A stretch of DNA of 14,025 nucleotides from positions 1 through 14,025 of the forward strand of contig JBGGMJ010000028.1 of NCBI GenBank assembly GCA_041288095.1. Reading direction: 5' to 3'. Shown in pieces: positions 1-14,025 of this stretch (positions are counted from its first letter, which is position 1; every line of letters begins with the position of its first letter). This DNA comes from Myxococcota bacterium (GTDB lineage: Bacteria > Myxococcota > XYA12-FULL-58-9 > JALHOP01). The notes beneath the pieces are model-generated. The model had not been told where the DNA came from and ran no database searches. It saw nothing but the letters and a program-made list of their open reading frames with translations. A program made the position numbers and the translations under genes.

Positions 1-531
1 GGCGGCAAGAGCTACAAGGTGCTCATCAAGTCGGTCGATCGCGACCCGGTGAACAGCTCGTACGTACACGTCGACCTCTACGCCGTCGACATGAAGAAGC
101 CGATTCGCGTCGAGATCTTCCTCGAGCTCATCGGTAAGCCGAAGGGCATCGTGGACGGCGGTCTGCTTTCGCAGATCATGCGCACCGTTCAGGTCCAGTG
201 CTTGCCCGACGCCATCCCCGAGAAGCTCCAGCTCGACACGTCGGACATGGACATCGGCGACATCAAGCACATCTCCGACATCACGTTCCCGCAGGGCGTG
301 AAGGCGACCTCGACCCACGACGAAGCCGTCGCGGCGGTCGTTGCGCCGGAAGAGATCAAGGAAGAGACGCCAGTGGCGGTGGCTGGTGCTGAAGGCGCTG
401 CTGCGGCTCCTGGCGCGGCTGGTGCCGCTCCGGCGGCTGGTGCTGCTCCGGCGGCTGGTGCCAAGGCAGGCGATGCCAAGGCTGCAGCTCCGGCGGCTGG
501 TGCCAAGGCCGGCGGCGACAAGAAGAAGTAG
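1..531 (+). CDS. rplY: 50S ribosomal protein L25/Ctc (long form), 5'-truncated by the window edge, with Ala/Gly/Pro-rich C-terminal tail
   Basis: Frame 1 is open from base 1 (GGKSYKVLIK...). Motifs LIKSVDRDPV..HVDLY, GIVDGG and VQCLPDAIPE..DTSDMDIGD..HISDI..P.GV match L25/TL5. Directly upstream of pth, the usual context. Confidence 0.96.
   Translation, partial: GGKSYKVLIKSVDRDPVNSSYVHVDLYAVDMKKPIRVEIFLELIGKPKGIVDGGLLSQIMRTVQVQCLPDAIPEKLQLDTSDMDIGDIKHISDITFPQGVKATSTHDEAVAAVVAPEEIKEETPVAVAGAEGAAAAPGAAGAAPAAGAAPAAGAKAGDAKAAAPAAGAKAGGDKKK
397..510 (+). repeat. Imperfect tandem repeat encoding AAPAAG units in the L25 tail
   Basis: GCTCCGGCGGCTGGTGC occurs exactly at 427, 445 and 487, with a degenerate copy near 405-426. 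Confidence 0.85.
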
Positions 532-540
532 TTCTTCTTG
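519..540 (+). other. Perfect 9-bp hairpin with the rplY stop codon in its loop
   Basis: CAAGAAGAA (519-527) - GTAG - TTCTTCTTG (532-540). Confidence 0.6.
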
Positions 541-561
541 GTACAGACGTAGGAGTGCTTC

Positions 562-1125
562 GTGTTTCTCGTCGTTGGCCTGGGCAACCCCGGCAAAGAC
601 TACGATGGCACGAAGCACAACGTCGGCTTCGAGCTCGTCGACTCCCTGGCGCGGCGCCTGAACGCTCCGCGCTGGAAGTCCGAGCTCCGGGCCGAGACCT
701 GCAAGGTCAAGGTGGGCAACGCCGACGTCCTGTTGGTGAAGCCCCAGACCTATATGAACCTCTCGGGCGAGTCCGTTCAGGCCTTGGCGCATTACTACAA
801 GGTCGAGCCGGCGAGCGTCATCGTGGCCCACGACGAGCTCGACTTCGAGCCCGGGACAGTCAAGCTCAAGGTCGGCGGTGGCCACGGGGGCAACAACGGC
901 CTACGGTCCATCATCGCGCATTTGGGCGCCGACTTCGTGCGCCTGCGCATCGGCATCGGCAAGCCCCCGCAATCCGATCGCGGCGCCGACTGGGTCCTGT
1001 CGCGTTTCAACAAGGCGACCCGGCCGCTCATCGACGATGCGCTCATCAAGGCCGACCAAGCCATCGAGTCGATCATCGTCAACGGCGTCGCCAAGGCCAT
1101 GAACGCAATCAACCAGGCCGGCTGA
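562..1125 (+). CDS. pth: Peptidyl-tRNA hydrolase
   Basis: VVGLGNPG..Y..TKHNVGF, KPQTYMNLSG, HDELD, GGHGGNNGLRSI, RLRIGIG, VLSRF. GTG start with AGGAG at 551-555. Confidence 0.98.
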   Translation: MFLVVGLGNPGKDYDGTKHNVGFELVDSLARRLNAPRWKSELRAETCKVKVGNADVLLVKPQTYMNLSGESVQALAHYYKVEPASVIVAHDELDFEPGTVKLKVGGGHGGNNGLRSIIAHLGADFVRLRIGIGKPPQSDRGADWVLSRFNKATRPLIDDALIKADQAIESIIVNGVAKAMNAINQAG

Positions 1126-1143
1126 CCGCGTCCGCTGTAACCG

Positions 1144-2919
<1,776 letters not shown>

Positions 2920-3050
2920 GGGCGCATGCAGTCTCACCGAGGTGGAAACGACGCGCAATGATTTGCACGTTGGGCAATTTACACCACAGACGCTCTAACC
3001 CGCTGACACCAGGGCGGAAATTGCGACTTCAGAGAATATTTCCGGAAAAA

Positions 3051-3072
3051 CACGTGCATTGCGTTGCACGTG
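3051..3072. promoter_or_regulatory. Palindromic candidate activator/regulator binding site
   Basis: CACGTGCA-TTGCGT-TGCACGTG, a perfect 8-bp inverted repeat in the divergent intergenic region. A second palindrome TTTCCGGAAA lies at 3039-3048. Confidence 0.5.
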
Positions 3073-3095
3073 CACCAATCACACCACACAAACGA

Positions 3096-3108
3096 TTTCA
3101 GGTACTTA
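3096..3108 (+). promoter_or_regulatory. IHF-like binding site
   Basis: TTTCAGGTACTTA has one mismatch to WATCAR-N4-TTR and lies between the palindrome and the -24/-12 element. Confidence 0.5.
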
Positions 3109-3121
3109 GGCGGCTTCGAGA

Positions 3122-3137
3122 TGGTTTGAGCCTTGCA
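3122..3137 (+). promoter_or_regulatory. Sigma54 (-24/-12) promoter for the di-heme gene
   Basis: TGGTTTGAGCCTTGCA has exact GG-N10-GC spacing and a perfect TTGCA; the -24 CAC is degenerate. It lies just upstream of RBS AGGAG (3156-3160) and ATG 3166. Confidence 0.65.
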
Positions 3138-3165
3138 ACGGACGGGTCACACCCCAGGAGAACCA

Positions 3166-4401
3166 ATGCACCACGAGCGAAGTTTGCTAAATGCCGGATT
3201 CCTCGTCGCTGCTGCGACCGCGCTTGCCGCTTGCGGCAATTCGTCGGTCACCGGCCCCAGCGAGCCGGAACCCACAGCGACCGTCGATGACGTTCTTGGC
3301 GGCGACTCGGCTGAGGTCGCGGCATCGCTCGGTATCAGCGAGCAGGAGCTGCGCGGTCTCGACCGCGACAAGATCTCCGAGATGCTGAAGATCCTCCAGG
3401 GTGGCTTGATCTTCCACTTCGAGCGCTTCCGCGGCAACGGTCGTACTTGCGCCACCTGCCACCGCGGCGCCGCCTTCGACCTCAAGCCCGAGGACGTGCA
3501 AGAGCTCCACGCTCGCCGTCCCAACGACCCGTTGTTCCTCCACGACGGTAGCGATGACGGCCTCGGTAACGGGACCACGCGCATCCAACAGAACGCGACG
3601 ATTCGCGTCGACTTCAACCTGCCGGCGAACGTGACCATCGTCGAAAACCCGTCGCTTCGACAGGTGACGTTGATGCGCGCGGTGCCCTCGTTGCTCAACG
3701 TCCCGGCGCTCGAGACCATCTTCATGCTCGACGGTCGCCAGCCGACGCTGCAGGCCCAGGCCCTCGGCGCGGTCAACGATCACGCCCAAGCAGAGCGCCA
3801 GCCGACGGCCGGCGAGCTCGACGCGATTGCGATCTTCCAGGAGAAGGATCCCCACTTCTTCAGCTCGCCGGTCCTGCGTGAGTTCGCCAACGGCGGTCCG
3901 GCGCCGGTGCTGCCCGAGGGCAATACGGACAGTGAGCGCCGCGGTCGCGCCTTCTTCGAGCCCGACACCGCCTGCGGCTCGTGCCACGGTGGCCCGATGT
4001 TGAACGAGACCACGGCCGGTAACATCGGCACCAAGCTCGGCTTCGGCAATGGCGTGCGCGTCCGCAACATTCGCGTGCCGATCGACAACGTCGCCGGCTT
4101 GCCGCAGTGGACGTATCGCTGCGTGTCCCCGACCGGCGCCGTCACGACGTCGAAGACCGCGGACCCTGGCCTCGTCCTGACCAACGGTAACTGCGGCGAC
4201 ATGAACCACTTCCGTATCTCAACGCTTTGGGGCATCAACGAAAGTGCGCCGTATTTCCACAACAATTCGGCCAAGACGCTGGAAGAGGTCATGGATCAGT
4301 ACGACCGCTTCTTCAACATCCTGGTCACGGCGCGTGGTCTGGATATTCGTCTGACGCGTGAGCAGCGGGCTGACATCCTGGCCTATATGCGCTTGCTCTA
4401 A
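3166..4401 (+). CDS. Di-heme cytochrome c lipoprotein, bacterial cytochrome c peroxidase/MauG superfamily
   Basis: Lipobox LAAC (Cys23), two CxxCH motifs (CATCH 3448-3462, CGSCH 3973-3987), PSLLN..LDGR..LQAQA, RGRAFF, FRISTLWGI..SAPYFHNNSAKTLEEV, LT.EQRADILAYM. RBS AGGAG supports ATG 3166 rather than TTG 3133. Confidence 0.88.
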   Translation: MHHERSLLNAGFLVAAATALAACGNSSVTGPSEPEPTATVDDVLGGDSAEVAASLGISEQELRGLDRDKISEMLKILQGGLIFHFERFRGNGRTCATCHRGAAFDLKPEDVQELHARRPNDPLFLHDGSDDGLGNGTTRIQQNATIRVDFNLPANVTIVENPSLRQVTLMRAVPSLLNVPALETIFMLDGRQPTLQAQALGAVNDHAQAERQPTAGELDAIAIFQEKDPHFFSSPVLREFANGGPAPVLPEGNTDSERRGRAFFEPDTACGSCHGGPMLNETTAGNIGTKLGFGNGVRVRNIRVPIDNVAGLPQWTYRCVSPTGAVTTSKTADPGLVLTNGNCGDMNHFRISTLWGINESAPYFHNNSAKTLEEVMDQYDRFFNILVTARGLDIRLTREQRADILAYMRLL

Positions 4402-4427
4402 GAAGAAATCGTCTCCGGGGTTCCCAC

Positions 4428-4484
4428 ACACGGTGCCGGCAGTGCCCTCCAGGCTGGGAGGGCGCTTGCCGGCACCCGTGTTTT
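4428..4484 (+). terminator. Long GC-rich hairpin followed by a short T run; probable intrinsic terminator
   Basis: ACACGGTGCCGGCAGTGCCCTCC pairs with GGAGGGCGCTTGCCGGCACCCGTGT (a few bulges and GU pairs) and runs into TTTT, just after the stop at 4401. Confidence 0.7.
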
Positions 4485-4570
4485 CACGCTCTGTCGTTCG
4501 AATAACGCTTGCCGTATCGGTTTTCGATCATGTATCTAGCCCGCTCCTTTTTTTGGGAAACGGTAAGACG

Positions 4571-5050
4571 ATGTTGATGACCGAATACGAGACCACGATG
4601 GTGGTGCGCCCCGACATCAGCGGCGACGTCATCGAAGCTACGCTCGACCGCGTGCGCGACGCCGTGAAGAAGAGCGGCGGCAAGCTCGTCGCCCTGAATC
4701 ACTGGGGCAAGAAGAAGCTCGCGTACCCGATCGCCAAGCACACCCGCGGCATTTACGTGCAGGCGCACTACCTCGGACAGGGCGGCCTCGTCGCCGAGGT
4801 CGAGCGCAACCTGCGCATTTCGGACAGCGTCCTGCGCTTCCTGACCGTGAAGGTCAGCGACCATGTGACCGCCGACGAGCGCCAAGAGAAGGAATACGTA
4901 CGCCCGACCTACGAAGCGCAAGCCGACGAGGTCGATGACGAGCCGATGTTCGGCCGTGACGACCGCCGCGACCGCGAGCGTGATCGGGATGATCGAGACG
5001 ACGTCGAAGTCGGCGGACGCGACGACGAGAGTGCGGACTACAAGGACTAA
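4571..5050 (+). CDS. rpsF: 30S ribosomal protein S6 with long charged C-terminal tail
   Basis: EYETTMVVRPD, GGK....HWGKKKLAYPIAK...GIY, EVERNLRISDSVLRFLTVK. Start is ATG 4571 or ATG 4577; the ORF track upstream extension from 4358 is not credible. Confidence 0.97.
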   Translation: MLMTEYETTMVVRPDISGDVIEATLDRVRDAVKKSGGKLVALNHWGKKKLAYPIAKHTRGIYVQAHYLGQGGLVAEVERNLRISDSVLRFLTVKVSDHVTADERQEKEYVRPTYEAQADEVDDEPMFGRDDRRDRERDRDDRDDVEVGGRDDESADYKD

Positions 5051-5053
5051 GCC

Positions 5054-5338
5054 ATGTCAGACGATAAGTTCGAGCGTTATGGTGACCGCGATGGCGGAGA
5101 TGAGCGTGGCGATGGCGGGCCGGGTTTCCGCCGCCGCAAGGTGTCGCGCCTCTACACCGAGATGGGTGGCAAGGTCGATTACCGCGATCCGCAGACCCTG
5201 AAGTACTTCGTGACCGAGCGTGGCAAGGTCGTTCCGCGCCGCATCAGCAAGGTCTCCGCGAAGGACCAGCGCAAGATTACCCGCGCTGTGAAGCGCGCCC
5301 GCTCTCTCGGGTTGATGCCCTTCCAAATCACCACCTAG
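5054..5338 (+). CDS. rpsR: 30S ribosomal protein S18 (no zinc-binding cysteines)
   Basis: FRRRK..., VDYRD..TLKYFVTERGKVVPRRIS..SAKDQR.ITRAVKRARSLGLMPF. Confidence 0.98.
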   Translation: MSDDKFERYGDRDGGDERGDGGPGFRRRKVSRLYTEMGGKVDYRDPQTLKYFVTERGKVVPRRISKVSAKDQRKITRAVKRARSLGLMPFQITT

Positions 5339-5355
5339 GGTGAAGTGAGCTCGTT

Positions 5356-5802
5356 ATGCAGGTGATCCTCCTAGAAGACATGCCCAACCTGGGCGGCATC
5401 GGTGAGCAGGTGAACGCGCGCGACGGTTACGCGCGTAACTATCTCTTCCCCAACAAGCTCGCCGTCCCGGCGTCGACCAACAACGCCAAGCGTTTGGCGC
5501 ACGAGAAGCGCGTCGCCAACTTCCGCCTCGCCAAGGCGAAGGCCGAGGCCGAAGGCGTCGCCAAGAAGCTTTCCGCGACCGCGGTCTCGATTGCCCGCAA
5601 GGTGGGCGAGCAGAACAAGCTGTTCGGCTCGGTCAGCGCGCACGACGTCGAGCAAGCGCTCCTGGAAAAGGGCGTCAAGGTCGACCGTCGCAAGATCGAT
5701 GTCGGCGAGCCCATCCGTCAGGTTGGCGAGTATGACGTCAAGATCCGGCTGGTGGGCGGCGTGGCCGCGACCATCAAGGTCAGCGTCGTCGCCGAAGCCT
5801 GA
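5356..5802 (+). CDS. rplI: 50S ribosomal protein L9
   Basis: MQVILLEDMPNLG..GE.V..RDGYARNYLFP..LA, KLFGSVS, VDRRKI....PIRQVGEY. Confidence 0.98.
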   Translation: MQVILLEDMPNLGGIGEQVNARDGYARNYLFPNKLAVPASTNNAKRLAHEKRVANFRLAKAKAEAEGVAKKLSATAVSIARKVGEQNKLFGSVSAHDVEQALLEKGVKVDRRKIDVGEPIRQVGEYDVKIRLVGGVAATIKVSVVAEA

Positions 5803-5806
5803 GACA

Positions 5807-5826
5807 CTGACCGCTATTGCGGTCAG
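5807..5826. terminator. Perfect 8-bp hairpin just after rplI; terminator or mRNA-stabilising element
   Basis: CTGACCGC-TATT-GCGGTCAG, 4 nt after the stop. It is followed by CAAAA rather than a U-tract, so + strand intrinsic termination is uncertain. Confidence 0.5.
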
Positions 5827-5937
5827 CAAAATCGAGATTAACCAAGTAAACGGTTCTTAACGTTTGTTGGCGCCGCTTCGCGTCGCGCTCAGCGCGTTCG
5901 TCGGGCGCGAAACGTTTCGATACCATCGTCACTTTGT

Positions 5938-5967
5938 TTGCGGAGTGGGCCGGCGTCGGTCTATCAT
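5938..5967 (+). promoter_or_regulatory. Candidate sigma70-type promoter of the signalling cluster
   Basis: TTGCGG-N18-TATCAT upstream of RBS GAGGAG (6001-6006) and ATG 6011. A 12-bp palindrome CGAAACGTTTCG (5908-5919) lies just upstream. Confidence 0.45.
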
Positions 5968-6010
5968 AGCGTTCGGCTTGTGCTCCGGTCCATGCGGTCC
6001 GAGGAGCTGA

Positions 6011-8263
6011 ATGCAGACGCATAAGGAAGTTGCCGCGAAGGGAGTGCTCGCTCGAGCACTCGCTGGAAACCTCGCGGAAGATTTCGACCCAAAAAACGTC
6101 GATCCCAAGGGCGCGGCACACCTGATCCTCGATCTGTCGCGTGTCAGCGGCGTTTCGTCGTTCGGCGTGCGCGAATGGGTCCGAGCGGTGCGCGAGTCCG
6201 CGGAGAAGACGCGCATCTGGTACGTGGCGGCCTCGCCGCGCATGACCGATCAGTTCAACATGATCGCCGGCTTCGACGGCGGCGGCACGTTGCTGAGCTT
6301 CTACGGCAACTACCTGTGCCCCGAGTGCAACAACGAGACGCCGGCCATGTTCGACGTCCAGCTCGACGCCGCCAGCTTCACGTCGGACAACGCACCCGTT
6401 CGTCAGTGCCGCATCTGCGGCCGTCACGCCGAGCTCGATGACATTCCCGAGGCGCTCTTCGAGTACGCCGGCTCGCACCCCGTAAGCGAGGTCGCGCCCG
6501 ACGTAGCCGCCTTCTTGAAGGGCCCGCAGTACTGGGCCGAGGTGGCCCCCGGCGATCGCTTCGCCATTCGCAAGCTGCGCGCCGCCGACGCGACCACTTA
6601 CGACATCCACGGCATCATCGACGTTGGCTTCTCGCTCGACTCCGTGAGCAGCGAGCTCGGCGACGTCGTGTCGCTGTCGTTACCGCACGTCCAGCACATC
6701 GATCCGACCTCGGGGACGGCACGCTGGATCGAGGTGGTAGGCAAGCTCAAGCGCGATCGTAAGGTCAGGCTGGTGGCCGTGCCGCCGGTGTTCCTGCGCC
6801 GCGTGATGGACTCGTCCGCGATGGTGGCGGGCTGCGAGATCTCGTCGGTCGTCTATCCGACCAAGTGCGCGCAGTGCCAATACAAGGCTCTGCTCCAGAT
6901 CGACCCGCGCAACGCGTTCGACCAGACGACGCTGGCGCGCACCAAGTGCCGCAACTGCAATGGCGGACCGTTGTTGACGCGTTGCGATTTCAGCGACATC
7001 ACCGCGATGCACAACTTCGTGCTCCGCTCGCGCAGCGCGAGCGTCGGTAGGCCCGAGCATGCCGCGCCCCGCGAGGCGCCGAGCGAGCGGCAAGAGTCGG
7101 ATTTGCCGGCGTTCCTCGCCCAGAGCTCGCCGTCTCGCTACGAGCCGCTCTGCAAGATTGGCGAAGGCGGCATGTCGGATGTCTACCTGGTGCGCCAGCA
7201 CGGCGCCGTGGGCTTCCGCCGTCTCGTCGTCATCAAGGTCATCCGCTCCGAGTTCCTCACGGACGATCGCCTGGTGCGCATGTTCATCGACGAAGCTCGC
7301 CTCGCGGCGCGCCTCGACCATCCGAACATCATCCGCGTCCACGACCTTGGCCGCGGTGGCGGTGCGTTCTTCATGGTCATGGACTTCCTCCATGGCCGCA
7401 GCGTCAGCGAAGCCCTGTTCCAGACAGCCAAGCAAAACGTGACCTGGCCCCCGGCGCTGGCCGCGACCATCGTCGCCGACCTTTGCTCGGCGCTCGCGCG
7501 AGCGCACATCCCGGACGCATCGGGCAAGGCGCTGGTGCACCGCGACGTGACCCCGGCGAACGTCATTCTCCGCTTCGACGGACTCGTGAAGCTCATCGAC
7601 TTCGGTCTCGCGGGCTACCAGCACTTCGCCAAGGATGCGAGCCGCGCCGGTCAGGTCGTGGGCAACTTCGCTTACCTCGCGCCCGAGGCGTTGAACGAGC
7701 AAGAAGCCACGCCGCAGCTCGACATCTGGGGCGCCGGCCTCATCCTCGCGTGCCTCGCGCTCGGCCGTCATCCGTTCAAGCGGGCAACGTCCGAAGAGAC
7801 GATCATCGCCATTCTTCGGCAGCCGCCGAACCTCACCGGGCTCCCGAAGGAGCTGCTGCCCATCGTCGAGAAGAGCCTCCAGAAGGATCCGAAGCTGCGC
7901 TATGCCAGCATCGCCGACATGGGCAACGAGCTTCGCGAGGTCATCGTCGAGATGACGCGTGACCGGAAGAGCTCGGGCTCCGGCTCGGGCTTGTGGCGAT
8001 GGCTCGGACGCAAGAGCGAGGATGCGGAAAAGCCGCTCACGCTCGAGTCCATGTTGCGACGGTTGTTCTCGCACCAGATCCGTATCGAGAACGAGTTCTC
8101 GCGCCGCGCTGGCGCGCCTCAGTTCATCGATGCGTTGCTTGACGCTTCTCCGAAGGATGTGGCCCGCCTCTTCCGCACGTTGCATGTGGACGACGCGACG
8201 CCGACGGCATCGGCCTCGGTACCGCCGCCTAGTGATGTGCGATCACTCGGCGCACTGACGTAG
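6011..8263 (+). CDS. Cytoplasmic Hanks-type Ser/Thr protein kinase with two N-terminal STAS-like/Cys4-ribbon modules
   Basis: Kinase motifs IGEGGMS.VY, VVIK, FIDEA, HPNI, HRDVTPAN, DFG, YLAPE and DIW at about 7139-7945. N-terminus has LDLSRVSGVSSFGVREW + CPEC-x26-CRIC, then a diverged copy + CAQC-x23-CRNC. No transmembrane helix seen. Confidence 0.92.
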   Translation: MQTHKEVAAKGVLARALAGNLAEDFDPKNVDPKGAAHLILDLSRVSGVSSFGVREWVRAVRESAEKTRIWYVAASPRMTDQFNMIAGFDGGGTLLSFYGNYLCPECNNETPAMFDVQLDAASFTSDNAPVRQCRICGRHAELDDIPEALFEYAGSHPVSEVAPDVAAFLKGPQYWAEVAPGDRFAIRKLRAADATTYDIHGIIDVGFSLDSVSSELGDVVSLSLPHVQHIDPTSGTARWIEVVGKLKRDRKVRLVAVPPVFLRRVMDSSAMVAGCEISSVVYPTKCAQCQYKALLQIDPRNAFDQTTLARTKCRNCNGGPLLTRCDFSDITAMHNFVLRSRSASVGRPEHAAPREAPSERQESDLPAFLAQSSPSRYEPLCKIGEGGMSDVYLVRQHGAVGFRRLVVIKVIRSEFLTDDRLVRMFIDEARLAARLDHPNIIRVHDLGRGGGAFFMVMDFLHGRSVSEALFQTAKQNVTWPPALAATIVADLCSALARAHIPDASGKALVHRDVTPANVILRFDGLVKLIDFGLAGYQHFAKDASRAGQVVGNFAYLAPEALNEQEATPQLDIWGAGLILACLALGRHPFKRATSEETIIAILRQPPNLTGLPKELLPIVEKSLQKDPKLRYASIADMGNELREVIVEMTRDRKSSGSGSGLWRWLGRKSEDAEKPLTLESMLRRLFSHQIRIENEFSRRAGAPQFIDALLDASPKDVARLFRTLHVDDATPTASASVPPPSDVRSLGALT

Positions 8264-8333
8264 CCAGCAGCACGAGCTTGATTTTCGATGTGATAGAAAG
8301 AGCCGGACCGGGCAGTCTCAGTCGGATGCGAAT

Positions 8334-9293
8334 GTGAGTAACGGCAATATCTTACTGGTTTGGGGCGACAACAGGGATCGCCGAGCTCTCTACAAGGCGC
8401 TCGCGACGACAGGCGCCGGTGTGTCGTTCGCCAACGACCCGAGCCAGCTGCGCGCGGGGCTCGAGCAGTGCCGCCTGGTGGTGATGGACTACGATGCCGT
8501 CCGCGATACGGCGCGCGAAGTCCTCCAACATCTGTCGCTGCAACCCTCGCCGCCGCCGGTGCTCGTCGTCACCTCGAGCAACCACAAGGCCGATCTCATC
8601 GAGCTCTTCGGACACGCCGCGCTCACCAATCTGGTCGCCAAGAACGCCGACTTCAATCTCAACGAGCTCATCATCACGGCGCAGAAGGTCATTCGGAACG
8701 ACATCTTCGGGCTCGACAAGTACCTGAGCTGGGGCGTGCAGGCTTACCAGTACAACATCACCAGCTCAGCCGGGCGCTTCGGGCCCATGAAGGACCTCGA
8801 GAGCTACTTGCACGCCATCGGCGCCAACCGCCGTCTCGCCGCGCTCGCCCACAGCGTCGCCGACGAGCTGCTGATGAACGCCATCTACAACGCGCCGGCG
8901 GATCCACAGGGCAATCCGAAATACGCCAGCCGCTCACGTACCGAGCAAGTCGAATTGCTGCCCGACGAAACAGTCTCGTTTTCGTTCGCCTGTGACGGCC
9001 AGTATCTCGGGCTGTGCGTCGCCGATCGCTTCGGCCGTCTCGAGACCGACACCGTGCGCAACTACCTGCGCAAGTGCTTTCTGCAGGGCGAAAATCAGAT
9101 CGACACCAAAGATGGTGGCGCCGGCCTGGGACTCTATTACATTTTCCAGTCTCTCAATCACTTCATCATCAACGTCGCGCGCGGCAAGCGCACCGAGCTG
9201 ATCGGACTCATGGACATCTCGGGCAGCTTCAAGGACTTCGCGCAGCGCACCAAGTCTCTTCATCTATTCATAGCTGGGGGAAGGCAGCAGTGA
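8334..9293 (+). CDS. Atypical receiver domain fused to an RsbW/SpoIIAB-like GHKL (HATPase_c-type) domain
   Basis: N-terminal REC-like pattern (ILLVWGD, LVVMDYD, VLVVTS, LVAK). C-terminal N-box DELLMNAIYN, VADRFG and G-box GGAGLGLYYI, with no H-box/DHp. GTG start with weak RBS. Confidence 0.75.
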   Translation: MSNGNILLVWGDNRDRRALYKALATTGAGVSFANDPSQLRAGLEQCRLVVMDYDAVRDTAREVLQHLSLQPSPPPVLVVTSSNHKADLIELFGHAALTNLVAKNADFNLNELIITAQKVIRNDIFGLDKYLSWGVQAYQYNITSSAGRFGPMKDLESYLHAIGANRRLAALAHSVADELLMNAIYNAPADPQGNPKYASRSRTEQVELLPDETVSFSFACDGQYLGLCVADRFGRLETDTVRNYLRKCFLQGENQIDTKDGGAGLGLYYIFQSLNHFIINVARGKRTELIGLMDISGSFKDFAQRTKSLHLFIAGGRQQ

Positions 9294-9760
9294 CCGCTGG
9301 GCTCAAGTGGAAGGTCGACCGGGGCTCGGAGGCGATAGTCGTCGCGTTCGCCGGATCCATCGACGAAGACGCGCGCCTCGACACGCTCACCGGTGAGCTC
9401 TCGGGCGCACCACGCCTGCGTTTCGACATGGGCGGCATCACGCGCATCAACTCGTGCGGCGTACGCGAGTGGGTGAACTTCATGCGGGCGATTCCGCCGG
9501 GAACGCGCGCGACGCTCGAAAATTGCCCGTCGGTCGTGGTCGCGCAGGTCAATATGATCAGCAACTTCAGCGGTCCGGCGCGCGTTGCGTCCGTGCGCGT
9601 CCCCTACGTCTGTAAGGACTGCGGCTTCGACGCCGAGCTGCCGATGGACACGCCTCCCGGCGCGCGTCCGGTGCTACCCGCGATGCAATGCCCGCGCTGC
9701 AAGAAGAGCGAGTTCATTTTCGACGACCTCGCGGATAGTTACTTCGCGTTCTTGACCTAA
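9290..9760 (+). CDS. Stand-alone STAS-like (anti-anti-sigma-like) protein with C-terminal Cys4 ribbon
   Basis: GTG start overlaps the upstream TGA (GTGA, 9290-9293), with purine-rich GGGGGAAGG upstream. VAFAGSIDE, LRFDMGGITRINSCGVREW, CKDC-x22-CPRC; 156 aa. The ORF track start at 9014 overlaps the upstream gene and is rejected. Confidence 0.82.
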   Translation: MTAGLKWKVDRGSEAIVVAFAGSIDEDARLDTLTGELSGAPRLRFDMGGITRINSCGVREWVNFMRAIPPGTRATLENCPSVVVAQVNMISNFSGPARVASVRVPYVCKDCGFDAELPMDTPPGARPVLPAMQCPRCKKSEFIFDDLADSYFAFLT

Positions 9761-9779
9761 CCCCGGGAGCCCCTGGCCT

Positions 9780-11114
9780 TTGACTACGGTGAGCACAGGA
9801 GTCGACGTCGTGCGTGGCAGCCTGCGTGCCGCCATCGCCCAGACCGTGCTCGACCAGCTCGTCGATGCCGCCGTGGTAGTCGATCGTGACCTGAAACCGA
9901 TCGCTTGGAACGCTCGCTACCTCCAGCAGCTCGGGTTGCGACAGCAGCAGTTCATGCGGCGCTTGGAGTCGGCTTCACCGCGCTGCTGCGATCTCCTGCG
10001 CCTCGAGGTTTGTCGTGAGGGTTGCCTCGCGCAACGGGTGCTCACGCAGCGCAAGCCGGTGCGCGTCGACGAGATCGCGGGCTGGGTCGAGACCATGCCC
10101 GACGACAAGATGACGTTCATCGTGAACGCCTCGCCGGTCGTCGACGAGCAGGGCGAGATCGTCGGCACGCTCGAGGTGTATCGCGACGTCACCGGAGAGG
10201 CGCGCATCCAGGCGCGCTACAAGGCGCTCCTCGAGGAAGAGCGCAAACGTTCGGTCTCGCTCGAAGAGCAAGTGCGGCTGCGCACGGAACAGCTGCAGCA
10301 GAGCATCAATCAGCTCGAGCAAACCCGCGACCGCTTGATCCAGGCGGAGAAGCTCTCGTCGCTCGGCCAACTCGTCGCCGGTGTCGCGCACGAGATCAAC
10401 AATCCCACGAGCTTCATCTACGGCAACATGCGCTTCCTCTCGGAGCACGCGACCGCGTTGCTCAAGATGCTCGACTTCGCGACCGCTGAAGCGAACCTCG
10501 CTCCGACGGCGCGCGAAGAGCTCCACCGTCTCATGACCGAGCTCGAGATCGACTACGTGCGCGACGATCTCTTCAAGATCATCGACGCGATCTCGACCGG
10601 CGCCGAGCGCATCACCGCCATCGTCCGCGACCTGCGCCGTTACGTTCACAACGGCTCCGCCGACGAACGCGCAACCGTCGATCTGGCGCGTTGCCTCGAC
10701 ATGGCGCTCTCCTTCTTCAAGTTCGAGATCCGCGGCATCCACGGCCTCGAGCGCGCATTCGATCCGGCGACGCCGAAGGTCGTGGGCAATGAAGGTCAGC
10801 TCAGCCAGGTGGTCATCAACCTGGTCGCCAACTCCGTGCACGCCGTCGGCCCAGAAGGGCGCATCCGTGTCGAGCTGCGCCCGCACGACAACGGCGCCTG
10901 TATCGTCGTCCAGGACAACGGGGCCGGCATCCCCGAAGAGCACTTGCTCAAGGTCTTCGACCCATTCTTCACGACCAAGCCGGTGGGCGAGGGGACCGGC
11001 ATGGGCCTCGCCATCGCTCATTCCATCGTCGACCGCCACGGCGGGACCATCGGCGTGACCAGCAAGGTGGGCGCCGGGACGACATTCACCGTTTGGCTTC
11101 CGGCGGCGCCCTGA
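9780..11114 (+). CDS. Soluble PAS-domain sensor histidine kinase (NtrB-like core)
   Basis: PAS ([37 protein letters not shown]), coiled coil, H-box [10 protein letters not shown]-box [34 protein letters not shown]. Start is TTG 9780 or GTG 9810 (AGGAG at 9797-9801). Confidence 0.94.
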
Positions 11115-11143
11115 TACACTAATGTGGGGTCAAGGAGCCGGCG

Positions 11144-11578
11144 GTGGCGGAAGCAGCGCGCGAGAGAAGGACGTTGAGCGTCCTGTGCGTCGACGATGAG
11201 GCACAGAATCTCGACGCGATCCGACGCGCTTTTCGCAAGAACACCGACCTCAAGGTGCAGTCCGCCGAGTCGAGCGCCGCGGCGATGCAGCTCGTTCGCG
11301 CCGAGAAGTTCGATCTCTTCCTCGTCGACTATTCGATGGCCGGGGTAAACGGCGTCGAGTTCATCGAGCAGGCGAAGGTGCTGGCGCCGAACGCCGTCTT
11401 CATCATGCTGACCGGTTATCCCGAGCTCAAGAAGGTCGTCGACGCGCATGCCCGCGGATTGGTGGACGGCATTCTCGGCAAGCCGTGGAGCGCCGAGGAG
11501 CTGACGCTAACGGTGACGCAAGCGCGCTCCATCCTCCACCTGCGGGCGATCCGTCTGGGTGTGGCCGAGCGCGGCTGA
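11144..11578 (+). CDS. Single-domain response regulator
   Basis: VLCVDDE, FLVDYSMAGVNG (phospho-Asp), MLTGY, GKPW; no output domain. AGGAG at 11133-11137 precedes the GTG. Confidence 0.93.
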   Translation: MAEAARERRTLSVLCVDDEAQNLDAIRRAFRKNTDLKVQSAESSAAAMQLVRAEKFDLFLVDYSMAGVNGVEFIEQAKVLAPNAVFIMLTGYPELKKVVDAHARGLVDGILGKPWSAEELTLTVTQARSILHLRAIRLGVAERG

Positions 11579-13249
11579 TCAGGGAGCGCTGTCGGCGACC
11601 TTCACCGCGACGAGGCTGTCGGGCTGCAGCAGGCCCTCGGGATCATCGACGGTGACCACGAGCGACTCCCCATCGCCTCGGATCGCGCAAGCAAGACTCG
11701 GGTTGTCGACCAAGGTGCAGGTCGCCGTCGCGGCGGGGAAGCTCACGGCGCCGGCCGGCACACGTGTGGTGAGCTTGGCGCGCGAGGCGAGAGTGGCGAC
11801 AGCTTGGTTCGCCTCGACCGTCGTGCCGACCTCGACCAGCGACGCGATCTCGCCGGCCGCTTCGGCGGTCACCTCGACCCAACGTACCGTGCGCGCGGTG
11901 CGCTCGTAGGCGTCGCGCGCCTGCGCGAGGAAATAGCGGTAGACCTCGTCGTAGCGGGCGCTCTTTTGAATGCTCTCGTAGCGCTTCTGCGCCCGTGAAA
12001 GCTTGGCATAGCTCTTGGCGTCCAAGAGCGCGCCGACGACCGCTCCTGCGGACACGCGATCGCGGACGGCGACATCGACACGCGCCCACGTGCCCGCGCT
12101 CGGCGCGGTGACCGTGCCGCCTTCGCTCGGCTCGAAGCGCGCCTGCACGACGACGGTCGGGTTGGCGCGAGGCTGCGCGCTGGGCGGCGCCACTTGCGGC
12201 ACCACCGGTGCTCCCGCTTGCTTCTCGAGGCCGGCCAGCTGAGCGGCGACGCGTTGCTCGGCGCGTATCACGATGGCCGCGGCCGCGGCGCTGACGGCGA
12301 CGACGATGGCGGCGGCCACGAAGACGATGCGGCGGTGACCGCTCGGGGCGACGGTCGGGATGATCGGGTCGATCTTGGTCGGCCGCGGCTCGGGCGCCTG
12401 CGCCTCGGGCTCGAGCTCATCGATGTCGAAAGCAATCGACTCGGCCCGCGGCGCGCGCGGGCGCCGCTCGAGCGCGACCCGCGCTTGCTCGTTGTCGGGA
12501 TTGATCTCCAGCGCGGCTTCGAGATAGCCGGCGACTCCCTGGTCGTTGCCGGCACGTTCCACGGTGAGCGCGGAGCGTAGCAGGTGGCGCTCCTCCTCGC
12601 TGTCCGCGGCGGCGAGCGCCGCCCTCAAGTCGGCGCTCTTCTCGGGCGCCCCCGACGAGTCGTCCGCGAGGAAACCGTAGCCTCGCAGCTCGCGCATGAA
12701 CGAACGGACGAGCTCGGGCGTCGCTTGCAAGCCGAGCTGCTGCGCGCGCTGCGCGATGGCGGTCAGGCTGCGGTGGCCATCCATGAGCTGCGCGATGCGC
12801 CATTCGACGCGGTAGATGGGGAACGCCGTCGCCGTGCCGGCGCGACGCACACTGACCGTGTCGGCGGTCTCCTTGACGATGGTCAGGTCGCTCCGTAATA
12901 GCGGAGCGGTGGGGAGATTGGCGACGCCGATCATGCGGGCGCCGGCGCCCACGCTCACGGAACCGACTTGGGTCACGGCGCCGGGCTTCGGGCCTACGTG
13001 GGTCGCCGCGACCGGCCATGGTCCGACGTGAGTCTCGGCCACCGGCGCCTGCCCGACGTAGGTCTCCGCCACCTGGAACGGCTCGGCGATGGTCACGTCG
13101 CGCGACGGCGCGTCTTCGCTGTCGGTCGGCGGCGGCGGCGGGCGCGAGATCACCGTGCGCTCGACACCGTGCTCGCCGGTCTGCCGGCCCTGTAGCGGCG
13201 GCGGCGCTTCCCAAGGGTTACGGGGCGGTCTATCGGGCGGCTTGGCCAT
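11579..13249 (-). CDS. HlyD/membrane-fusion-like protein with Pro-rich repeat N-terminus, PqqD/RRE-like domain, TPR-like motif and one TM helix
   Basis: PLLRSDL..V.VR....AF.I..VEWRIAQLMDGHRSL..I.....VRSFMRELRGYGFL (PqqD-like); YLEAALEINPDNEQA (TPR-like); TM IVFVAAAIVVAVSAAAAAIVI; two lipoyl-like halves VTAPSAG..V.V.DRV.AG and VTAEAAGEI..VEVG..V flanking a helical hairpin. Confidence 0.7.
   Translation of the reverse strand: MAKPPDRPPRNPWEAPPPLQGRQTGEHGVERTVISRPPPPPTDSEDAPSRDVTIAEPFQVAETYVGQAPVAETHVGPWPVAATHVGPKPGAVTQVGSVSVGAGARMIGVANLPTAPLLRSDLTIVKETADTVSVRRAGTATAFPIYRVEWRIAQLMDGHRSLTAIAQRAQQLGLQATPELVRSFMRELRGYGFLADDSSGAPEKSADLRAALAAADSEEERHLLRSALTVERAGNDQGVAGYLEAALEINPDNEQARVALERRPRAPRAESIAFDIDELEPEAQAPEPRPTKIDPIIPTVAPSGHRRIVFVAAAIVVAVSAAAAAIVIRAEQRVAAQLAGLEKQAGAPVVPQVAPPSAQPRANPTVVVQARFEPSEGGTVTAPSAGTWARVDVAVRDRVSAGAVVGALLDAKSYAKLSRAQKRYESIQKSARYDEVYRYFLAQARDAYERTARTVRWVEVTAEAAGEIASLVEVGTTVEANQAVATLASRAKLTTRVPAGAVSFPAATATCTLVDNPSLACAIRGDGESLVVTVDDPEGLLQPDSLVAVKVADSAP
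12953..13072 (-). repeat. Four imperfect 30-nt (10-aa) tandem repeats
   Basis: VAETYVGQAP / VAETHVGPWP / VAATHVGPKP / GAVTQVGSVS. Confidence 0.85.
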
Positions 13250-13949
13250 CGCCTCCCCACTCCTCGAAGGGGATCACGCGTCGGATTTCGAGGGTCGGGC
13301 GTCCGCCCTCTGCGAGAAAGGCTACCGCGCCGGCGTAGCCTTCCGCGACTTTGACGCTCGAGAGCCACCAGCCCTTCGCGTCGCCGTCGATGCGGGCTTC
13401 ACCGCCCTGGCCGAAACGCACCGTGAACTCCTGGAAAGCCGTTGAAAGTCCGGTGCCGAGAGCTTTGGCGTAGGCTTCCTTGAGAGTCCAGAGCCGGAAG
13501 AACAAAGCCCGACGTTCGTCTTCGGGGGCGCGGGTGAGCAAAGCTTGCTCATCCGGGCTGAAGCTTCCTTCGGCGTTCGCCATCACGTCGAGGCGCTCGT
13601 CGATGCGCTCCACGTCGACGCCGACGCTGCCCCCCGGTGCGAACGCCGCGACCGCGAATTGGCCGCTCTGCGAGGCGTTGAACGCCACTTCGGCGGTGGG
13701 GAAGGTGAGTGTGGGTTTGCCATGGCTACCGGGCTCTAGACGCAAGCTCTTGCCGTCCACTCCGAGCGAGCGCCCAAGGCCCCAGCGTAGGAGGGCCGTG
13801 GACACGAGGTGCGCGCGCTGGTCGCCGGGCCGGAGGAAGCGGTCGATGCGCTGGCGTTCCTCGGAGCTCAGCACCTCGCGGTAGATTGCCAGGCGGGCCA
13901 CGACCTCGGGCGCTTCGCAATCGACGGTGCAGACCTCCAGCGGTTTCAT
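13230..13949 (-). CDS. Sfp-type 4'-phosphopantetheinyl transferase
   Basis: LSSEERQR..RF, HGKP, FNASQSG, VGVDVE, FS.DE, FFRLWTLKEAYAKALGTGL. Start ATG 13949 (or GTG 13952); its end overlaps the next gene by 20 nt. Confidence 0.93.
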   Translation of the reverse strand: MKPLEVCTVDCEAPEVVARLAIYREVLSSEERQRIDRFLRPGDQRAHLVSTALLRWGLGRSLGVDGKSLRLEPGSHGKPTLTFPTAEVAFNASQSGQFAVAAFAPGGSVGVDVERIDERLDVMANAEGSFSPDEQALLTRAPEDERRALFFRLWTLKEAYAKALGTGLSTAFQEFTVRFGQGGEARIDGDAKGWWLSSVKVAEGYAGAVAFLAEGGRPTLEIRRVIPFEEWGGDGQAAR

Positions 13950-14025
13950 CACAAGCTTCTTTTTGTAAGTCGGTTGAGCGGGTGTTAACCTTTTGCGTTT
14001 GCTTCAGGTCGGTCGGCACCTGTGA

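Follow-up and report, generated by a model that had tools for sequence, protein, structure and literature searches.

A cluster of five genes on contig JBGGMJ010000028.1 of a Myxococcota bacterium was found to be an uncharacterised relative of the partner-switching systems, in a large family that occurs mostly in Myxococcota. The conserved core of this family across 79 related loci is a pair of genes encoding 1) a protein with a degenerate receiver and a GHKL serine kinase domain similar to those of RsbW and SpoIIAB (P0002, type RG) and 2) a STAS domain followed by a zinc ribbon with four cysteines (P0003, type SZ). In the stretch analysed (the window; positions 1-14,025, forward strand, G+C 62-72%), the five + strand open reading frames (ORFs) of the cluster at 6011-11578 include, in addition to this pair, a Hanks-type Ser/Thr kinase with two N-terminal STAS-ribbon modules (P0001), a PAS histidine kinase (P0004) and a lone receiver (P0005) (Table 1). 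Based on sequence and predicted folds, we tentatively regard the cluster as a whole as a sigma-factor-independent partner-switching circuit, with a confidence that stays a little short of even. The Hanks kinase is the best reading of its output, and the pair of PAS histidine kinase and receiver is probably a second one.

P0002 is a two-domain protein of 319 amino acids (aa) with no PP2C domain in the polypeptide, and no Pfam or NCBIfam model, Response_reg included, matched it. The AlphaFold2 model made from alignment A1 (40 of the 207 matches to P0002, also used for a profile) reached a predicted local distance difference test (pLDDT) score of 91 and contained a (beta-alpha)5 receiver fold (aa 1-121) and an alpha/beta sandwich (aa 138-313). 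Foldseek comparison with the PDB gave LvrC as the best full-length match (9qih, E 3.2e-7); template modelling (TM) scores, by target, were 0.72-0.76 for the GHKL fold against SpoIIAB and RsbW and about 0.8 for receiver domains. Profile A1 matched receiver (REC) chains in the PDB with a best E of 2.4e-6, and a search of the PDB with the single sequence returned a weak REC match alone. Residues were counted over 86 RG rows, the window included. The N, G1 and G2 boxes of a GHKL (Bergerat-fold) kinase are present, with E178, N182, D231 and G234 of the ATP site found in 86/86 rows and G262, G264 and G266 in 85/86, which argues for a predicted active kinase or ATPase.

P0003 consists of a STAS domain (aa 1-95) and a ribbon (aa 101-144), with C108, C111, C134 and C137 in its last third. 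Its AlphaFold2 model, built on alignment A2 (26 of the 28 matches to P0003), had a pLDDT of 95, and the best Foldseek matches were SpoIIAA (in complex with SpoIIAB), RsbV, TM1442 and a Haliangium STAS protein, with TM by target of 0.53-0.69 for the STAS fold against SpoIIAA and RsbV. C2H2 zinc-finger entries of the PDB, matched by P0003 and also topping the search with profile A2, were rejected as spurious products of the CxxC spacing, and a STAS-only alignment of 35 sequences (A3) was built for this reason; the A3 profile retrieved TM1442 (E 3.9e-4) and RsbV (E 7.5e-3). The invariant Ser of the RINSCG motif in the P0003 family, at the N-terminus of helix 2 (Ser55 in P0003), aligned with the Ser of MDSxG in TM1442, RsbV and 4hyl, which we take to be the residue phosphorylated in RsbV and SpoIIAA. 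Among 52 STAS-ribbon modules borne by proteins other than kinases (window included), this Ser was present in 51, G57 and W61 in all 52, and each of the four ribbon Cys in 47-50.

By homology, it is very probable that the GHKL domain of P0002 would bind the STAS-ribbon domains and phosphorylate their invariant Ser, that is, Ser55 of P0003 and Ser50 in module 1 of P0001. A kinase-substrate logic of this kind had been put forward in the preliminary description of the stretch, and both the conserved N, G1 and G2 boxes and the alignment of the Ser with the MDSxG motif of RsbV and TM1442 speak in its favour. The pairing is also seen in gene neighbourhoods. A search of one-genome-per-species contigs with the RG pattern gave 369 matches, 367 of them confirmed; the best 80 were kept and made up 79 loci, which were annotated with profiles and phmmer queries that came from the window or from locus proteins checked against Pfam. 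Nearly all of these loci come from Myxococcota metagenome-assembled genomes (MAGs), Bradymonadia, Kofleriaceae and Polyangia among them, and a few are labelled Bdellovibrionota. A free SZ gene lay directly downstream of RG in 36 of the 75 loci with at least 520 nucleotides (nt) of room, and an SZ was found anywhere in the locus in 50/79.

Pfam located Pkinase in P0001 at aa 378-632 (E 7e-38) with the Hanks motifs intact (G-loop 384-391, catalytic K409, HRD 510-512, DFG 530-532 and APE 557-559), and gave no match in the first 377 residues. Profile A2, which derives from free STAS-ribbon proteins, matched this N-terminal region twice, at aa 10-152 and 183-318 (E 3e-38), and a word-based search with the same region returned nine proteins, none having a functional name. 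In kinase-borne first modules, window included, the Ser and all four Cys were present in 13/13. The Ser position of the seven second modules above threshold was S in three, P in two, A in one and T in one (T233 in the window), with the first three Cys in 7/7 and the fourth in 6/7. Because the kinase has no regulatory domains other than the STAS-ribbon modules, P0002 would set the activity of P0001 by binding or phosphorylating them, and free P0003 would compete for the GHKL kinase; from the architecture and the gene pairing, we consider control of P0001 by its STAS-ribbon modules moderately probable.

The tie between RG and a STAS-fused Hanks kinase, also proposed earlier, held in the related loci. 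SZ-kinase fusions occurred in 10/79 loci, and in seven of these ten (L001, L007, L013, L040, L055, L067 and L078), as in the window, the fusion gene immediately preceded RG and had the same orientation; in the RG tree, a quick maximum-likelihood tree, the seven are split between two regions far from each other. Kinase and STAS genes are thus adjoining and co-conserved. In L013 and L078, the kinase-borne SZ was the only one seen in the locus DNA; the contig of L078 is 4.1 kb long and the DNA of L013 stops some 540 nt 3' of RG, so that a free SZ may lie just outside.

The direction of phosphorylation could also be the opposite, with the Hanks kinase phosphorylating the STAS domains of its own chain (in cis) or that of P0003, and P0002 only reading their state. 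RG-SZ pairs, however, stand without a Hanks kinase in most loci (any Hanks kinase in 24/79); in addition, the conserved Ser is at the classical target position of GHKL kinases, and the GHKL domain keeps its ATP-site residues in 85-86 of 86 rows. We give it a very slim chance, even though the catalytic motifs of P0001 are intact, the STAS-kinase fusion places substrate and enzyme in one chain, and there is a parallel in Mycobacterium tuberculosis, where PknD acts on the anti-anti-sigma homologue Rv0516c (PMC1847690). That case resembles the window in the cross-talk of a Hanks kinase and a STAS protein and differs from it in that the two are separate proteins and it is the Hanks kinase that phosphorylates (PMC1847690).

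No sigma factor, PP2C or DNA-binding gene lies within the five-gene cluster, in agreement with the preliminary description. A sigma-70-family domain was found neither in the ORFs of the window nor in 100 of the 148 candidate neighbour ORFs (35 loci), and no helix-turn-helix (HTH) regulator was found in these 100; the genes that recur in the neighbourhood encode kinases and GGDEF/EAL, PilZ and PP2C proteins. These findings stand against the view that P0002 is an LvrC-like, receiver-regulated anti-sigma factor for a distant sigma factor, with the STAS modules as its anti-anti-sigma antagonists. Fold similarity to SpoIIAB, RsbW and LvrC would suit this view, as would the facts that the sigma target of LvrC is also not adjacent, its identity being likewise open (PMC13269768), and that HsbR binds RpoS, which is encoded elsewhere (PMC6482189). 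We hold it to be highly improbable.

In P0004, Pfam identified PAS_4 (PAS at aa 24-141), HisKA (H204 in the motif HEINNP) and HATPase_c (aa 337-443, with N, G1 and G2 motifs), and P0005 matched Response_reg (E 2.9e-19) with the full receiver set D17-D18, D62, T90 and K113. A histidine kinase with H, N and G boxes is thus adjoined by a canonical receiver, and phosphorylation of P0005 by P0004 is likely. The preliminary description had drawn a linear relay instead, in which P0004 would phosphorylate Asp52 of P0002 and, through GHKL and the STAS-ribbon modules, control the Hanks kinase, leaving P0003 as a titrator and P0005 as a phosphate sink or a branch. Precedents for it are LvrB, which phosphorylates the REC-Bergerat protein LvrC on D53 (PMC13269768), LvrC being the top fold match of P0002, and the transfer from HptB to HsbR (PMC6482189). 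In addition, P0002 has D52, T80 and K103, residues retained in 4/5 RG rows of the window clade, which is also the clade with the histidine kinase and receiver genes. However, alignment to a PDB receiver places W10-G11 of P0002 where the Mg-binding acidic pair should be, and position 11 was S, P, G, A, R, T, I or a gap, and never D or E, in the 80 of 86 rows tabulated; the canonical receiver active site is therefore incomplete in P0002, and the Pfam Response_reg model gives no match in it. The acceptor position was D in 44 rows, N in 16, S in 14, H in three, E in three and other residues in six; position 80 was A in 35, S in 31 and T in eight (T/S in 39/86), and K103 was K in 54/86. Beside a PAS histidine kinase, the acceptor was N (L039), H (L019) or Q (RG', a second RG paralogue in L001), and in the window the canonical receiver P0005, the default partner, is encoded 29 nt 3' of the histidine kinase gene. 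Judging from these residues, we think it likelier that the receiver of P0002 is a pseudo-receiver with a regulatory role than that it accepts phosphate, and the relay through Asp52 seems improbable.

All five gene types occurred together in only three of the 79 loci: 1) L001 (65% identity; SZSZ-kinase, RG', PAS histidine kinase, REC, RG, SZ), 2) L002 (53% identity; SZSZ-kinase, REC, RG, SZ, PAS histidine kinase, REC) and 3) L066 (52% identity; the kinase gene divergent, then RG, SZ and PAS histidine kinase, with REC convergent and a HAMP-SpoIIE gene adjoining at the cluster border). Co-occurrence elsewhere, on which the preliminary description had made its proposal depend, was thereby found, and the RG-SZ core was wider. 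The flank rplY-pth...rpsF-rpsR-rplI was common to the window and L001 and not shared by L002 and L066. From the changed gene order and the different flanks of these two loci, we conclude that the set has been kept through rearrangement and relocation. Its recurrence in the three loci means that the five-gene arrangement is more than chance.

It could still be that two independent neighbours are seen here, a two-component pair and a module of RG, SZ and SZ-kinase, with no direct cross-talk. Most RG-SZ loci are without a histidine kinase (PAS histidine kinase in 6/79), Myxococcota-type genomes are dense in signalling genes, and the five-gene set is a single clade. Nevertheless, the whole set is still present in L001, L002 and L066 after rearrangement, in two of these loci between unrelated flanks, and the PAS histidine kinase joins RG-SZ at three separate places of the RG tree (the window clade, L039 and L019), so that we consider independence decidedly improbable. 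The PAS domain tells against it as well. The gene 3' of SZ carries a P0004-type PAS in 13 other loci, and in L071 by eye, and this same PAS either stands alone or has a HisKA-HATPase core or GGDEF as its fusion partner. The PAS region of P0004 (aa 1-165) contains C70, C78 and C82; these three Cys and the R.DE and RDV motifs were kept in 17/18 sequences (the window and L001, L002, L016, L019, L033, L039, L046, L049, L052, L060, L061, L066, L071 and L076 among their sources), L069 being without them, a pattern suggestive of a metal, redox or cofactor site.

On the model of HsbA, which acts on HsbD, and of All4160, which acts on an exopolysaccharide (EPS) enzyme, both of them STAS proteins with non-sigma targets, the STAS-ribbon may act on this PAS domain. 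The two arms of the proposed circuit would then be linked from the STAS-ribbon to the Cys-bearing PAS of P0004; we find this more likely than a link from P0004 to the degenerate receiver of P0002, and doubtful all the same. Rather unlikely, in our estimate, is the fully integrated form, a single circuit with three chemistries in which the pseudo-receiver GHKL kinase would write the state of Cys4 STAS-ribbon plugs, and these would gate the Hanks kinase in cis and the Cys-bearing PAS in trans; in that form, the STAS-ribbon may be thiol- or metal-sensitive via its ribbon.

Several observations weigh against the partner-switching circuit as we read it. The link from SZ to PAS is one of gene order alone, and the D52, T80 and K103 of the window clade, mentioned above, would befit a working receiver. 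The window and the RG rows of L001, L002 and L066 form one clade with a support of 99 in the SH-like approximate likelihood ratio test (SH-aLRT), and the five-gene layout therefore represents one evolutionary origin in four genomes. Module 2 of P0001 is without the Ser motif. P0003 itself had no match to Pfam STAS (PF01740/PF13466) at E <=0.01 or at E <=1, Pfam STAS matching 25/35 members of A3 at E <=1 (best 9.2e-7). An RG without an SZ within reach was found in 29/79 loci, and RG can therefore work with distant or different partners; these loci include a clade of 18 rows (support 100), mostly from animal-gut MAGs, and in several loci of the no-SZ clade (L004, L006, L014 and L020) RG follows a TPR protein. 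Finally, no PP2C/SpoIIE phosphatase was found in the 14-kb window, which leaves reversibility unexplained. Reset would come from dephosphorylation by a phosphatase encoded outside the window; related loci use SpoIIE-type PP2C. The absence of PP2C noted earlier thus holds for the cluster and is not a trait of the family: any PP2C was found in at least 23/79 loci (a lower bound from a single query), with HAMP-SpoIIE beside the cluster of L066, and several Bradymonadia-type loci have the order SZ(extended)-PAS-PP2C-TPR-x-RG, a full set of STAS, phosphatase and kinase.

Among known systems, the two-domain REC-Bergerat architecture of P0002 was described in 2026 for LvrC of pathogenic Leptospira (PMC13269768). 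LvrC likewise has an N-terminal REC, an RsbW/SpoIIAB-like Bergerat domain and no PP2C, and ties a histidine kinase to partner-switch chemistry, but its receiver is canonical and phosphorylated by LvrB on D53, whereas P0002 is without the acidic pair; the role proposed for LvrC is that of holding a sigma factor, and the accessible text mentions neither a STAS-ribbon partner nor a Hanks kinase for it (PMC13269768). No match to LvrC at the sequence level was obtained in PDB searches with the P0002 sequence or profile A1. A two-component relay to a REC-GHKL kinase and on to the Ser of a STAS protein is described for HptB-HsbR-HsbA(-HsbD/FlgM) of Pseudomonas aeruginosa and CrsR-CrsA of Shewanella; HsbA, phosphorylated on Ser56, acts on non-sigma partners, the diguanylate cyclase HsbD among them (PMC6482189). 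The RG-SZ loci resemble HsbR-HsbA in that related loci carry PAS-GGDEF or REC-GGDEF-EAL genes. There are also differences: unlike P0002, HsbR and CrsR have a PP2C between REC and GHKL, and HsbA, unlike P0003, is a plain STAS protein with no zinc ribbon and no Hanks kinase involved (PMC6482189).

The Bacillus pairs SpoIIAB-SpoIIAA and RsbW-RsbV share with the window the GHKL and STAS folds and the conserved Ser at the same motif position; the window differs from them in that it has neither a sigma factor nor a PP2C, its kinase begins with a receiver-like domain and its STAS protein bears a Cys4 ribbon. SypE of Vibrio fischeri reportedly contains, in addition, a PP2C domain and has its REC in the centre, and SiaC of P. 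aeruginosa is said to be a different kind of small partner protein. In SypE-SypA, the RsbW-like Ser kinase is part of a response regulator with several domains, and the STAS protein under its control, which has a single domain, has an output independent of a sigma factor (PMC3610818, PMC10120452), as would be the case here, but there is neither a zinc ribbon nor a Hanks kinase. In SiaABCD, a kinase/phosphatase pair sets the phosphorylation of a small partner, and a diguanylate cyclase is activated in a sigma-free manner (PMC8457831, PMC7647112), again unlike the window in having no receiver and no Hanks kinase. Anti-anti-sigma domains (STAS, COG1366) fused to eukaryote-like kinases were remarked on in 2010 in a myxobacterium, Sorangium cellulosum, the accessible text giving no architecture, ribbon, partner kinase or mechanism (PMC2887360).

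The route from two-component input over REC-GHKL and STAS to a non-sigma output is thus already established, as far as the available portions of these reports go (HptB-HsbR-HsbA-HsbD, CrsR-CrsA and SypE-SypA). The preliminary description knew of no characterised system with this layout. In the open-access papers and bioRxiv texts searched, we found no such five-gene layout, no STAS domain with a Cys4 ribbon, no tandem STAS-ribbon fusion as the only regulatory region of a Hanks kinase, and no pairing of a STAS-ribbon with a pseudo-receiver GHKL protein or a Cys-bearing PAS; the coupling of two-component signalling to a partner switch, on the other hand, is shared with LvrB-LvrC, HsbR-HsbA-HsbD and SypE-SypA. 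The domain assignments of the preliminary description were supported by profiles and predicted folds, with the refinement that the receiver of P0002 is degenerate and that the Ser motif is no longer present in module 2 of P0001.

Direct inspection of the junctions agreed with the earlier account of five co-oriented genes, with gaps of 70, -4, 19 and 29 nt. The P0002/P0003 junction is a 4-nt GTGA overlap of stop with start; the mechanical ORF of P0003 starts at 9014, and all homologues align from 9290. Shine-Dalgarno-like motifs were located 5' of 6011 (GAGGAG, start ATG), 9290 (GGGGGAAGG, GTG) and 11144 (AGGAG, GTG). A promoter and terminator scan was uninformative and gave nothing at the four internal junctions; its seven terminator-like sites, against 3.9 +/- 1.9 expected, were all within coding sequence. 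An 8-bp inverted repeat, CTGACCGC-TATT-GCGGTCAG, just 3' of the rplI stop, is a possible upstream boundary of the transcription unit, and was not flagged by the scan because it has no T run. None of the five proteins had a 19-residue hydrophobic window >=1.6, i.e. no membrane segment was predicted, and they are therefore probably cytoplasmic.

Table 1. Positions of features in the window and of selected genes in related loci
DNA	Feature	Position	Strand	Basis or remark
Window	pth	562-1125		upstream of cluster
Window	sigma-54 activator (two receiver stretches, AAA+, Fis-type HTH)	1144-2958	-	3 kb upstream of cluster
Window	di-haem cytochrome c peroxidase/MauG-like ORF	3133-4401	+	weak match
Window	rpsF, mechanical ORF; then rpsR, rplI	4358-5050 (rpsF)	+	Pfam S6
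Window	8-bp inverted repeat	5807..5826	+	seen by inspection
Window	P0001, soluble Hanks-type Ser/Thr kinase, two N-terminal STAS-zinc-ribbon modules, 95-aa C-terminal tail	6011..8263	+	Pfam, A2 profile
Window	P0001 STAS-ribbon module 1, aa 10-152	6038..6466	+	Ser50 in GVSSFGVREW; Cys103/106/133/136
Window	P0001 STAS-ribbon module 2, aa 183-318	6557..6964	+	degenerate motif IDPTSGTARW; Cys286/289/313/316
Window	P0001 catalytic domain	7142..7906	+	Pfam
Window	P0001 C-terminal tail	7976..8260	+	no family; kept in L001, L002, L066 only
Window	P0002 (RG), degenerate receiver and RsbW/SpoIIAB-like GHKL Ser-kinase domain (predicted)	8334..9293	+	AlphaFold2, Foldseek, profile A1
Window	P0003 (SZ), free STAS and C-terminal Cys4 zinc ribbon (predicted)	9290..9760	+	AlphaFold2, Foldseek, profile A3
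Window	Ser55 codon of P0003	9452-9454	+	
Window	P0004, cytoplasmic PAS histidine kinase	9780..11114	+	Pfam
Window	P0004 PAS region	9780-10274	+	
Window	P0005, single-domain canonical receiver	11144..11578	+	Pfam Response_reg
Window	556-aa ORF	11579-13249	-	convergent with cluster, zero gap; no Pfam family
Window	4'-phosphopantetheinyl transferase gene	13230-13952	-	window end; homologue in L074
L001	RG', second RG paralogue	7192-8124	+	directly 5' of PAS histidine kinase; fast-evolving, no Pfam match
L016	giant Pkinase/SpoIIE protein	4430-9562	-	
L049	giant Pkinase/SpoIIE protein	12358-17487	+	
L066	PilZ protein	6849-7592	-	adjoins cluster
L039	PilZ protein	9270-9875	-	adjoins cluster
L028	type II/IV secretion ATPase (T2SSE)	4536-5624	-	Kofleriaceae-type, beside RG-SZ
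L054	T2SSE	5889-6971	-	Kofleriaceae-type, beside RG-SZ
L058	T2SSE	8341-9426	-	Kofleriaceae-type, beside RG-SZ

Among the genes flanking the cluster in the window, the sigma-54 activator is an orphan response regulator and could be a further partner for P0004; L001 has no such gene at this place, pth being followed there directly by rpsF. The 3' end of the MauG-like ORF overlaps the mechanical start of rpsF, and the S6 match begins at residue 76, so that the rpsF start is probably near 4583. The 556-aa ORF gave weak NCBIfam matches to HlyD/RND adaptors and sub-threshold Atlas leads to membrane-fusion adaptor proteins, and no counterpart of it was found in any of the 79 related loci.

Further partners were recorded in the related loci: REC-GGDEF-EAL in 17/79, PAS-GGDEF in 6/79, PAS-only proteins in 5/79 and giant Pkinase-STAND-GAF-SpoIIE proteins in 8/79. 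The giants have a length of some 1700 aa, unite Pkinase, GAF and SpoIIE with a STAND-type AAA_16 NTPase and adjoin RG-SZ(-PAS-GGDEF); besides L016 and L049, whose proteins were covered by the Pfam scan (TPR was also found in that of L049), they occur in L033, L052, L053, L055, L059 and L071. They put a Hanks kinase and a PP2C in one chain beside the partner switch. T2SSE adjoins REC-GGDEF-EAL in L028 and L054, and these ATPase neighbours hint at a pilus or motility link.

The STAS-ribbon and RG families have no Pfam or NCBIfam model of their own. At E <=1e-3, the STAS-ribbon profile retrieved 4,824 cluster representatives out of 1.84 billion; at E <=1e-30, the number was 918. A scan of 42 longer representatives for fused domains revealed Pkinase in two, PDZ in one, PilZ-STAS-ribbon in one and FIST in two, the PilZ, FIST and PDZ fusions being represented by P0251, P0252, P0283 and P0201; PDZ was also present in a protein of L074. 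The idea that all two-module proteins of 670-815 aa are kinase fusions was ruled out, as only P0193 and P0235 of the 42 had Pkinase and the scanned P0160, P0167 and P0170 had none; in several two-module proteins of 730-750 aa, the C-terminal domain was unrecognised. The PilZ fusions, together with the PilZ neighbours of the clusters in L066 and L039, point to a connection with cyclic di-GMP (c-di-GMP).

Partner switches are the textbook regulators of sigma factors, and in a few recent cases they act on enzymes instead. Here, the STAS-ribbon is repeatedly fused to, or adjoins, Hanks kinases, PAS histidine kinases and PAS-GGDEF, PilZ, FIST, PDZ and PP2C proteins. If the proposed wiring is true, it would add a new domain to the regulatory inputs of bacterial Hanks kinases and provide a concrete, testable example of the coupling of Ser/Thr kinase, two-component and c-di-GMP signalling in predatory and social bacteria rich in signalling genes. 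Should the integrated circuit hold, the STAS-ribbon would be an unrecognised and widely deployed adaptor domain of Myxococcota signalling, joining Ser/Thr, His-Asp and c-di-GMP signalling without a sigma factor.

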